From positions 72,852,689 to 72,916,688 of the forward strand of contig JARDVH010000059.1 of the NCBI GenBank assembly GCA_030324005.1: a DNA stretch of 64,000 nt. The letters are read 5' to 3'. Below the pieces are notes generated by a model. It saw nothing but the letters and a program-made list of their open reading frames with translations. It searched no databases and was not told where the DNA came from. Position numbers and translations under genes: made by a program. This stretch comes from Negaprion brevirostris (Eukaryota). Of this stretch, positions 30,216 to 34,000 are shown piece after piece (positions within the stretch are counted from its first letter, which is position 1; the number at the start of each line of letters is the position of its first letter).

Positions 30216-30984
30216 ATAATAGGTGTGAATTTCTAGTCCCTCTGTGCTGTCGAGTAGTGTAGTGGGGTGGGAAATTTCAGCGGAACTCAAAAATTCAGAT
30301 GTGTGCCCAATGTCCAGCAAGCTACAATCTTCTTGGGCCACTTATTATGATGTGATCAGCCTAATGCCCGGGAAGGGTGTGAGACTGATTTAAATATTTA
30401 TAGTGCCATTTGTACCTGTTTATCAACCTCCGGATGCAATTGTCCAGGCTCATTTGGATTTCTGACTTCACCAGCGGTGGTCCACAATGGGGATCACAGC
30501 CGATCCCCAGCAACAGGGTCGGGGATGGGAGAGCAATGCCTTTTGGCAGTGCCAGCCTGGTACTGCCAGCCCTAAACACTGGCAGTGCCAACATGGCACA
30601 CTGGCAGTTCCCACCAGGCACTGGGCAGTATCAAGGAGGCGGGGCCTGAGGCATTTCATGGACTGGAGCCAGACTTGGAGGGGAATGTAGGAGGGGTGGG
30701 AAGGGGGAACTCTGCATTGGAGATGGGATGAGGGCTAGTGCTGGGGCCAGTGATCAAGAGGCCAGCGATTTGGGGGTGGGGGGGGCAATCAGAGGGTTGG
30801 CAATGTCTGGCAGGACAGGAATTCCCATGGGGTGAAAGGCCATGCCCACTAGGGAGCAGGTTATAAGCAGGTTTCTGGGAAGTGAGTTTGGAATTTTCCC
30901 TTCACCTCTTTCATGGTGGGCTGATAGTGGTAAGCAGTCTCACAACACCAGGTTCAAGTCCAACAGGTTTATTTGTAGCAAATG

Positions 30985-31023
30985 CCACTAGCTTTCTGAA
31001 CTGGCTATTCCTTCGTCAGATGG
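30985..31023 (-). ncRNA. Minimal type I hammerhead ribozyme, inverted copy with damaged stem II
   Basis: Minus strand ccat-CTGACGA-a-ggaat(agcca)gttca-GAAA-gcTA-gtgg; core intact, closing pair of stem II is a G/A mismatch. Confidence 0.7.
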
Positions 31024-31034
31024 GTAACTCCCAC

Positions 31035-31073
31035 CCACCTGACGAAGGAACAGCCAGTTCCGAAAGCTAGTGG
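31035..31073 (+). ncRNA. Minimal type I hammerhead ribozyme
   Basis: ccac-CTGACGA-a-ggaac(agcca)gttcc-GAAA-gcTA-gtgg: stem I ccac/gtgg, 5-bp stem II, loopless palindromic stem III (AGCT); predicted cleavage after A31069. Confidence 0.8.
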
Positions 31074-34000
31074 TATTTGCTACTCATATACCTGTACGAC
31101 TTTAACTGGTGTTGTGAGACTTCTTACTGTGTTTTCCCCAGTCCAAGGCCGGCATCTCCACATCAGGGCTGATAGTGGCTCAGGTTTCCTGCTGATCTAT
31201 GGCTGGAACGCTATTTGGATATATTACTGTCTTGTGAGTGTGCCAAGTCAGAAACCATAAAGTATATTATGAAGCCAGACTAGACATGTGCAATGGAGCC
31301 CCTGCGCACTGGTGCTGGCCTCCTTCGCAGGATTAGACTCCTCCCCCTCTCCCACTAGCATGAATCTCCTGATGGCTTCTGCATTGCACAGAGTGCCATC
31401 AATGACTGAGACACAACTTCCTGGAAAAACAAGTGGGAGAACCTCTTGTTTTCCCACCCGTTGGATACTTAGAATTATTTTGCGAAAATCGCCCCCTATA
31501 TCTGTGTATCAATATACATTATTCCCTGTATCTTCAGAGAGGTTCCATAAGCAAACGTATAAGCTTACTCACTTTCAAATGTTACATAATTATTCAAGGA
31601 GAACCTTTGTGCATGCTGCAGCATGTTGTATTTTCATGTTTTACTACTTTAACAGTGTAAATGTGCCATGTTCATGTAAAGAGGTTTGTGATAAATCATG
31701 TACCTATTAATGTATATCAGAACACAGCCCTCCTGAGGACATAGCAGCTCCAGTGGAAAAGCATTGCAGTCCAACCAAATTGTTTCAAGGCTAAATCCAA
31801 GACTTGACTGGCACTTAAGCTTGCCTTCCCTCACTGGGGGATGGGGGGGTTGGGGGAAGGTGGCAATGGAAGCTTGGGACAGGATTGTAAGGAGTGGAAC
31901 ACTTAATTTCAAGTCAGGACAGCAGTGCAGCAATTGGCAAGAGCATGCTCTGCTCCTGGATAGAGTTCACCGGTAGGTAAAATTCTGAAGCCGGAATCCT
32001 GCCATTCTGTGTGAAGAATGAAACAGCAGCATTGAGTTGGAGACTTGGGATATGTAGGAAGAATGGTGTCATGTAAAACAAATGTAGACTCTTGATGCTT
32101 TGAGCATAAGGCCTAGATTTCATAGAGAAGTTGAAATGAATATGATTTCATGTGAATAAATTACAATGCTAGACTTTATATTTCAGTCATATTTTACTGC
32201 AAGGTAAAATGTGCTCTAATTCCAAGCCTTCCAGGAAATCAATTGACCAAGTGTTCATTAAATATGTCTATATGCTAAATATCACTTAAGCAGCCTACTA
32301 ATGGGGCCTTCCATTCAGAGGGGAGGTAATCAGGCACTGAGTCTATCCATCCAGATTGTACAATGTTTGTTTAATGCACACGGTAATATAAAGAGAACAA
32401 CTTACCTGACACATGCCTTCCCATTAAGATGCCTCTGTGGGTGTATTTGTGTTTATACATGTACACATGTTCATATATAAAATGTATAAACACACAGAAG
32501 CAGGCCAGATGTCTAGCTGTGATTTATTTTTCTTCCACAAGAACAACTGATTAGCGAATGTGAAGGTACAAAATACGCTTTCAGTTATTTCATTAAATAA
32601 CGTAATTCAGGGTTCTGATAGATCCATAGAAATGCTATTACCAACAACTTCCTGTAGTGAATGAAATTTAAAAAGAAATCATTGTCTAGGAAGCATCAAA
32701 TTTACTTAATGCAGTTTAATAAAATTGGTGTAACCTAATACTGTTATAACTCAGTATACTGAGCACAATGTTGTGGAGTGAGCTTTTGTTAAATTAAGGG
32801 ATCTAGAAGTCAGTAGCAGTGTGACATTCTTTATATGATTGTGTCTGGGGCATAATATGACAGGAAAAATATAATGTTTCGTGAATGACAGTTTCTAGAT
32901 TTGTGTTGCCTGAGGTGGTTCAGCTGAACAATAAACTGTAATTTGATTGATGGGAAATTGAAGTGGTTCATCTAACATGCCAGTCCGTCTTACCCCAGGC
33001 TTTACTACTGCACATATGATAATGTATCACAGTTTTAGGAGTAATGTCATTTGTATTGTGTGATATGATTTTGTGCATAAAATGAAGACTTGATTGCACT
33101 GTAATGATCTAAATCAGCTGCGGATTAGCAACAGAACACATTTTATTGGGGAGGTGAGAGCGAAACTNNNNNNNNNNNNNNNNNNNNNNNNNNNNNNNNN
33201 NNNNNNNNNNNNNNNNNNNNNNNNNNNNNNNNNNNNNNNNNNNNNNNNNNNNNNNNNNNNNNNNNNNNNNNNNNNNNNNNNNNNNNNNNNNNNNNNNNNN
33301 NNNNNNNNNNNNNNNNNNNNNNNNNNNNNNNNNNNNNNNNNNNNNNNNNNNNNNNNNNNNNNNNNNNNNNNNNNNNNNNNNNNNNNNNNNNNNNNNNNNN
33401 NNNNNNNNNNNNNNNNNNNNNNNNNNNNNNNNNNNNNNNNNNNNNNNNNNNNNNNNNNNNNNNNNNNNNNNNNNNNNNNNNNNNNNNNNNNNNNNNNNNN
33501 NNNNNNNNNNNNNNNNNNNNNNNNNNNNNNNNNNNNNNNNNNNNNNNNNNNNNNNNNNNNNNNNNNNNNNNNNNNNNNNNNNNNNNNNNNNNNNNNNNNN
33601 NNNNNNNNNNNNNNNNNNNNNNNNNNNNNNNNNNNNNNNNNNNNNNNNNNNNNNNNNNNNNNNNNNNNNNNNNNNNNNNNNNNNNNNNNNNNNNNNNNNN
33701 NNNNNNNNNNNNNNNNNNNNNNNNNNNNNNNNNNNNNNNNNNNNNNNNNNNNNNNNNNNNNNNNNNNNNNNNNNNNNNNNNNNNNNNNNNNNNNNNNNNN
33801 NNNNNNNNNNNNNNNNNNNNNNNNNNNNNNNNNNNNNNNNNNNNNNNNNNNNNNNNNNNNNNNNNNNNNNNNNNNNNNNNNNNNNNNNNNNNNNNNNNNN
33901 NNNNNNNNNNNNNNNNNNNNNNNNNNNNNNNNNNNNNNNNNNNNNNNNNNNNNNNNNNNNNNNNNNNNNNNNNNNNNNNNNNNNNNNNNNNNNNNNNNNN

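Follow-up and report, generated by a model that had tools for sequence, protein, structure and literature searches.

A 235-bp insertion in Negaprion brevirostris is probably a dead remnant of a Penelope-type element

A 235-bp fold-back insertion in the genome of Negaprion brevirostris (GenBank assembly GCA_030324005.1, contig JARDVH010000059.1) is best read as a dead, ORF-less copy of a Penelope-like element (PLE) that was laid down in a single event, when an autonomous PLE primed DNA synthesis on both strands of the target; a probability of roughly 0.55 is assigned to this reading. That the insertion derives from a PLE at all is very likely, and it is a real but probably dead leftover of such an element. 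The window, that is the whole stretch of DNA analysed, comprises 64,000 nucleotides of gapped, repeat-rich DNA with about 40% G+C, and all positions refer to it. Other repeats in the window may be shark SINEs and CR1-type LINEs.

All parts of the unit outlined in the first-pass annotation were present, namely an exact 13-bp duplication, inverted arms of about 95 bp separated by a 7-nt spacer, and a 38-nt tail beyond the right arm; an AATAAA intact in the minus arm was likewise as described, and its counterpart in the other arm is altered. The arms lie head-to-head, and the 235 bp between the two copies of the duplication contain no ORF. The features are as follows.

30918..30930, no strand: left copy of the 13-bp target site duplication, exact repeat
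30930..31025, minus strand: PLE terminal repeat, inverted tail-less copy of 96 nt, first base common to the duplication
30968..30973, minus strand: AATAAA, intact, in the inverted arm; family state, the plus-arm version being private decay
30985..31023, minus strand: damaged minimal hammerhead, with C11.1 changed to A at 30997, wobbles at 31007 and 31020, and a putative cut site after 30989
31026..31032, no strand: unpaired 7-nt centre, of which at least 31028-31032 belongs to the tail-bearing arm, as the second copy has it there
31033..31127, plus strand: terminal repeat, direct copy of 95 nt, one base lost near 31106
31035..31073, plus strand: intact minimal type I hammerhead, predicted cut after A31069
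31127, plus strand: end of the direct arm, putative proximal reverse-transcription start by comparison with the start sites given in PMC11167929
31128..31165, plus strand: 38-nt tail, with a 3' boundary common to 9/9 related records read, 6/9 of which imply that the tail runs into an ATG
31166..31178, no strand: right copy of the 13-bp target site duplication, exact repeat

Neither side of the duplication can be extended, and a match of this length is expected by chance at about 8e-9 per placement, or about 3e-6 over the 420 allowed placements. Exact repeats of at least 13 bp at a spacing of 150-400 bp occur at three places in the whole window, one of which is a duplicate flanking an assembly gap.

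The inverted pseudo-LTR, the tail, the target duplication and the hammerhead together support the PLE origin proposed in the first-pass annotation. The EN+ PLEs for which details are given in PMC3846280, PMC8557442 and PMC2377424 (Adineta vaga Pen2a and Drosophila virilis Penelope, hereafter A. vaga and D. virilis) share an inverted terminal repeat, a 30-40-nt tail and a short duplication with the present copy, which differs from them in having neither an ORF nor a second direct repeat, in the length of its arms (about 100 bp against 180-220 bp) and in its duplication of 13 bp rather than 8-10 bp. Sections of PMC3846280 and PMC8557442 describe a head-to-head inverted repeat, a 31-bp tail and 8-10-bp duplications for PLEs, and the former also describes tails at the start of the ORF. 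As in EN+ PLEs, the terminal repeat carries a minimal type I hammerhead (with core boxes implied in five of nine related records), and its inverted copy is 5'-truncated and joined head-to-head, with the tail at one end. Inverted repeat, tail and duplication are standard PLE features, and the locus is largely explained by known biology. The Neptune-type parent named in the first-pass annotation is a candidate, no reverse transcriptase having been linked to the unit in the protein searches; across vertebrates, Neptune and Poseidon are both found (bioRxiv 10.64898/2026.07.22.740005). In the open literature, no description was found of ORF-less fold-back PLE stubs in sharks; Repbase, Dfam or subscription journals may hold the family.

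Hammerhead motifs were sought with a descriptor based on the consensus that Fig. S3 of PMC4209133 gives. The strict descriptor matched only once in the window, in the plus arm, and gave no match in 300 dinucleotide shuffles of the 59-kb non-N window searched on both strands. This motif has a 4-bp stem I, one extra core base after A9, a 5-bp stem II closed by G10.1-C11.1, a palindromic GC at 15.2-16.2 and a CUA triplet. The minus-arm motif passes only a relaxed version, in which the first stem II pair is freed (one match in 300 shuffles), because its C11.1 is A; it has thus lost the G10.1-C11.1 pair, which PMC4209133 in its account of the motif terms highly conserved, and has U-G wobbles in stems I and II. 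The proposal of a minimal type I hammerhead with a palindromic stem III is therefore borne out, since the plus arm fits the consensus, and a cut after A31069, as earlier predicted, agrees with the motif as read from the bases. By the same kind of reading, the plus arm has both the conserved core and the G10.1-C11.1 pair expected of an active minimal hammerhead, and the minus arm does not have both, so that of the two working ribozymes first proposed one motif is intact and the other is damaged in this copy. A search with hammerhead models had also been suggested; Rfam recognises neither motif, and for the window and a 301-bp stretch it returned no hammerhead but only generic long-hairpin matches under the gathering score.

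The minimal PLE hammerheads treated in the relevant sections of Cervera and de la Pena 2014 (PMC4209133) resemble the plus-arm motif in the short helix I, the extra base after A9, G10.1-C11.1, the palindromic 15.2-16.2 and the NUH triplet; the part of the Fig. S3 alignment that was examined has no shark entry. The same paper, where it deals with Schistosoma mansoni (S. mansoni), reports opposite-strand pairs of minimal hammerheads 100-700 bp apart, whereas the two cores lie 20 bp apart here.

Folding of the insert gave a hairpin of -139.2 kcal/mol (z -21; none of 200 shuffles was equally stable), with the 38-nt tail outside the long stem. A folding-order choice between cleavage and hairpin formation had been envisaged in the first-pass annotation. 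Because the arms lie head-to-head, however, the antisense arm comes first in a read-through RNA of either strand and buries the ribozyme: the model has 12 arm-arm pairs by the time the core emerges, rising to 38 once the motif is complete, and the probability of the hammerhead fold is 4e-37 on the plus strand and 2e-44 on the minus strand. For RNA starting at the centre, the probabilities were 1e-2 (to the tail) and 9e-2 (48-nt motif) for the plus arm, and 7e-9 and 8e-4 for the damaged minus arm; stems I and II form the most stable fold of the plus-arm 48-nt motif. Two-molecule folding of isolated motifs was left out of the results, a stem III dimer being beyond its model. The minimal motif is described in part of PMC4209133 as not cleaving alone and cleaving weakly as a dimer, the hammerhead of the Poseidon of Anolis carolinensis (PAc) needed protein according to the relevant section of PMC11167929, and one of nine Xenopus hammerhead dimers cleaved in the assays detailed in bioRxiv 10.64898/2026.07.22.740005; by analogy, a monomer hammerhead should stay silent even in RNA that starts at the centre. 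A reading of the locus as a two-ribozyme switch is not supported.

Relatives were sought through element translations that match spurious predicted proteins, rather than in shark DNA. The antisense frame gave seven matches among nine candidates and five of five in a follow-up, and nine of these 12 were read; one is a named record, scyTo_0022595 (P0013) of Scyliorhinus torazame, so that the antisense frame of the repeat end has been deposited as a hypothetical shark protein and the family contaminates gene annotations. In all nine records the match starts at the residue where the tail ends, and the flanks upstream are unrelated (27 of 28 flank pairs share at most 2/9 residues, and one pair shares 5/9). 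The nine records, alike in ending at one sharp boundary, thus indicate a dispersed repeat, with a fixed 3' end, found in sharks. His stands directly before the boundary in six of the nine, which in this register places an ATG at the end of the tail. Five of the nine reach the GAAA box and the cut-site residues, the other four ending or diverging earlier; in three of these five the last residues are Phe-Ile-Arg, which points to U at the variable position 7 of the core (C in the present copy), and four of the five stop within 8 residues, the sequence beyond not being visible in them. The sense-frame translation had no match among nine candidates, and two sense-frame matches in the representative library were rejected as summed tandem repeats of unrelated proteins. 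There was no usable match in an Atlas protein search for relatives or a linked ORF, no further copy within the window beyond chance matches of 17 bp, no blastn match among phages and plasmids, and no occurrence of a 20-base pattern in bacterial and archaeal genomes.

A second short copy was recognised on a 673-bp contig (P0003), where a single frame runs from the tail through the antisense arm straight into the sense arm. This copy is known through that one translated frame, its bases being deduced from amino acids, and the contig could be misassembled. It is not the same locus in another animal, a possibility that was rejected on its different flank. Its first arm matches the present copy down to 31028 and ends within about 2 nt of it. 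Its second arm begins at the core, so the centre is 8 nt shorter and the inverted ribozyme lacks the 5' strand of stem I, which weakens the notion of two working ribozymes in this copy as well. At three positions the two arms of the present copy agree with each other against the first arm of P0003, each with a single one-base solution: the base at the cut site (A against C, either of which is allowed), one base of loop II, and the outer pair of stem I (C-G against U-G). All three are compatible with the ribozyme, and the second arm of P0003 is compatible with the same C at the cut site in one of three equally short solutions. None of the arm-specific differences of the present copy is found in P0003, and variants follow the copy and not the arm.

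The arms differ from each other at 12 of 96 columns (11 substitutions and one gap); with P0003 as reference, five of the differences fall in the left arm, six in the right arm, and one is silent. Judged from these bases, the arms were identical at the start and have since decayed by about 6% each, evenly and independently. The differences comprise 3 transitions and 8 transversions, compared with 62% transitions in other repeats of the window (p ~0.02), which is unexpected for plain decay; the core CpG is intact in both arms. Selective removal of AATAAA from the tail arm was considered and rejected, the differences being unclustered (p 0.16-0.98) and the signal being kept in P0003. A perfect duplication beside diverged arms is not a significant departure (p 0.20).

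Under the preferred reading, insertion of the present copy would have proceeded as follows. The endonuclease would nick the two target strands 13 nt apart, and each 3' end would prime a cDNA on uncleaved PLE RNA: that of the bottom strand would begin at the distal internal site, where the tail ends (31165), and that of the top strand at a proximal site lying 38 nt upstream (30930, which corresponds to 31127). The two cDNAs would stop a few bases past the hammerhead core and be joined head-to-head, and the duplication would be made by gap filling. Whichever strand is read, what follows the duplication is antisense to the ribozyme RNA, and the tail makes up the offset between the two starts. Nicks staggered by 13 nt, with one cDNA per start site, would reproduce the locus base for base. 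The two hammerheads would be passengers of the repeated end, and read-through RNA is modelled to form a long hairpin that would not cleave itself.

Both-strand priming of this kind was suggested by PAc (Frangieh et al. 2024, PMC11167929). In the in vitro experiments of that paper, the PAc protein nicked both strands and extended them, with synthesis beginning at two internal sites that flank the tail; it used uncleaved RNA and needed RNA beyond the start sites. Here too the template would have been uncleaved, because both arms run through the cut site, as found in vitro. The PAc template needed sequence to +172, with start sites mapped at 111-118; if this rule carries over, a copy that ends at the tail may be unable to move again. 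As described in the same sections, the PAc ORF starts inside the hammerhead, whereas here an ATG seems to close the tail, 96 nt beyond the cut site, and PAc prefers an AT-rich target.

The preferred reading gains from the P0003 centre being 8 nt shorter while its first arm ends about 2 nt from that of the present copy, from the three positions that set the two arms here apart from that first arm, and from the even decay of the two arms. Against it stand the target, which is G+C-rich (8/13) and not of the kind favoured by the tested PLE, the 3:8 excess of transversions between the arms (p ~0.02), and the parent ORF, whose linkage to the tail was not found in protein searches of element translations or among the 150 longest of 350 open frames in the window; in these frames Pfam gave no GIY-YIG or PLE match, two RVT_1 fragments and one sub-threshold match. 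Further, there are just two short copies, and both stop at nearly the same place, as copies from a master would also do. In D. virilis, transcription starts 125 nt before the hammerhead, so no known RNA 5' end accounts for the point at which the cDNAs here would have stopped.

A self-copying non-autonomous family, in which a PLE protein acting in trans re-inserts entire transcripts of a fold-back master, was proposed in the first-pass annotation and would account for the very short plan of P0003, with its centre within 8 nt of the present one. Pseudo-LTRs suffice in trans in A. vaga (in the pertinent part of PMC3846280), non-autonomous PLE derivatives exist (PMC8557442 and bioRxiv 10.64898/2026.07.22.740005, in their treatment of such elements), the tail stays outside the long stem, and an 8-nt loss at the hairpin tip could be secondary. 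The centres do differ, however, and variable breakpoints had been named at the outset as the mark of one-off products rather than of a family; with n=2, and the second copy seen via translation, this weakens the proposal, as does the lack of any arm-specific difference shared with P0003. In addition, the unit ends at the tail, whereas the template of the tested PLE has to reach well past the start sites (in vitro data in PMC11167929), and the proximal start would be buried in a stem of -139 kcal/mol. Such a family is considered unlikely.

Collapse of a full-length PLE by recombination between its direct repeats, in the manner of a solo LTR, is improbable. The full structure (inverted repeat, direct repeat, ORF, direct repeat and tail) would reduce to exactly the present anatomy with the duplication kept, and solo pLTRs are reported in part of PMC3846280. 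Recombination would nevertheless be needed between repeats of just ~100-140 bp, and no ORF remnant lies nearby (Pfam, 150 of 350 window frames). The equal age of the arms and their membership of one subfamily fit collapse but do not require it.

A low probability is given to a PLE parasite that is palindromic and propagates itself, with a central promoter acting in both directions and trans-dimer ribozymes on the outward transcripts; the folding models allow this for the plus arm. Each outward transcript would then begin with a hammerhead, free of the antisense arm, and two of them could pair in trans via their palindromic stem III, which would permit cleavage as a dimer, and read-through RNA would stay locked as a hairpin; the minus ribozyme of the present copy, however, is damaged. 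Non-LTR retrozymes, as characterised in sections of PMC7229834 and bioRxiv 10.64898/2026.07.22.740005, which report them in one chondrichthyan, are similarly short, non-coding and pLTR-derived with a type I hammerhead. They are head-to-tail tandems able to form dimers or circles, whereas the present locus consists of one head-to-head unit, in whose RNA the ribozyme is blocked by the rest of the molecule, with no tandem at the locus and no other copy in the window.

A fold-back origin is quite improbable; in this reading the 3' end of a single cDNA, begun at the tail, looped back and primed second-strand synthesis, which gave the inverted arm and halted 38 nt short. Self-priming of this kind, proposed for palindromic PLE junctions in the corresponding part of PMC3846280, would give identical arms, a spacer derived from one arm and a loop of variable size, but it does not account for the inverted arm being short by exactly one tail length, as the two start sites mapped in PMC11167929 do. 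A MITE-like DNA transposon or a host-kept regulatory hairpin, suggested by the long inverted arms, the strong hairpin and sub-threshold microRNA-hairpin matches, is very improbable in view of the one-sided tail of 38 nt outside the right arm (inverted repeats reach both termini in MITEs), the family boundary at the tail, the hammerhead core kept across subfamilies, the decay of both arms and Rfam scores far under gathering (59 against 200, 55 against 249, 31 against 80).

Several other observations were made in the window. Read against the splice-site consensus, the insert begins with a donor-like GTAAG (30930) and has a branch-like CTTAC, a pyrimidine tract and CAG at 31123-31141 on the plus strand; of the 248 added bases, candidate splicing of 30930-31141 on this strand would excise 212, and the 36 that stay would keep the frame; the acceptor may belong to a PLE 5' intron. 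The plant MIR396 model resembles 30973-31085 on either strand at 31 and 29 bits (gathering 80), which was taken as chance. A second inverted repeat at 34813-35102, with 96-bp arms that are 82% complementary, a 98-nt spacer and no hammerhead match, is MITE-like. The left flank holds an imperfect 22-bp tandem (30544-30623), rich in G+C and with inverted repeats inside it, that is part of another repeat. Decayed LINE fragments at 17504-18701 and 49721-50795 are about 80% alike, and RVT_1 matches lie at 18008-18349 (plus strand) and 8694-8960 (minus strand). Perfect 45-50-bp duplicates that flank gaps of 100 N (1199-1248/1349-1398 and 17752-17796/17897-17941) are probably assembly artefacts.

Stubs of this kind can be misfiled as MITEs or hairpin RNAs, and their antisense frame has been annotated as a hypothetical protein. 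The locus matters mainly as a footprint of how PLEs insert, a process so far understood only in part. Both-strand priming at a pair of internal start sites could hardly leave a simpler genomic record than a minimal copy of two primed ends with a clean 13-bp duplication, and such shark copies would bear on the stagger of the nicks, on the point at which cDNA synthesis stops and on whether both arms come from one RNA.
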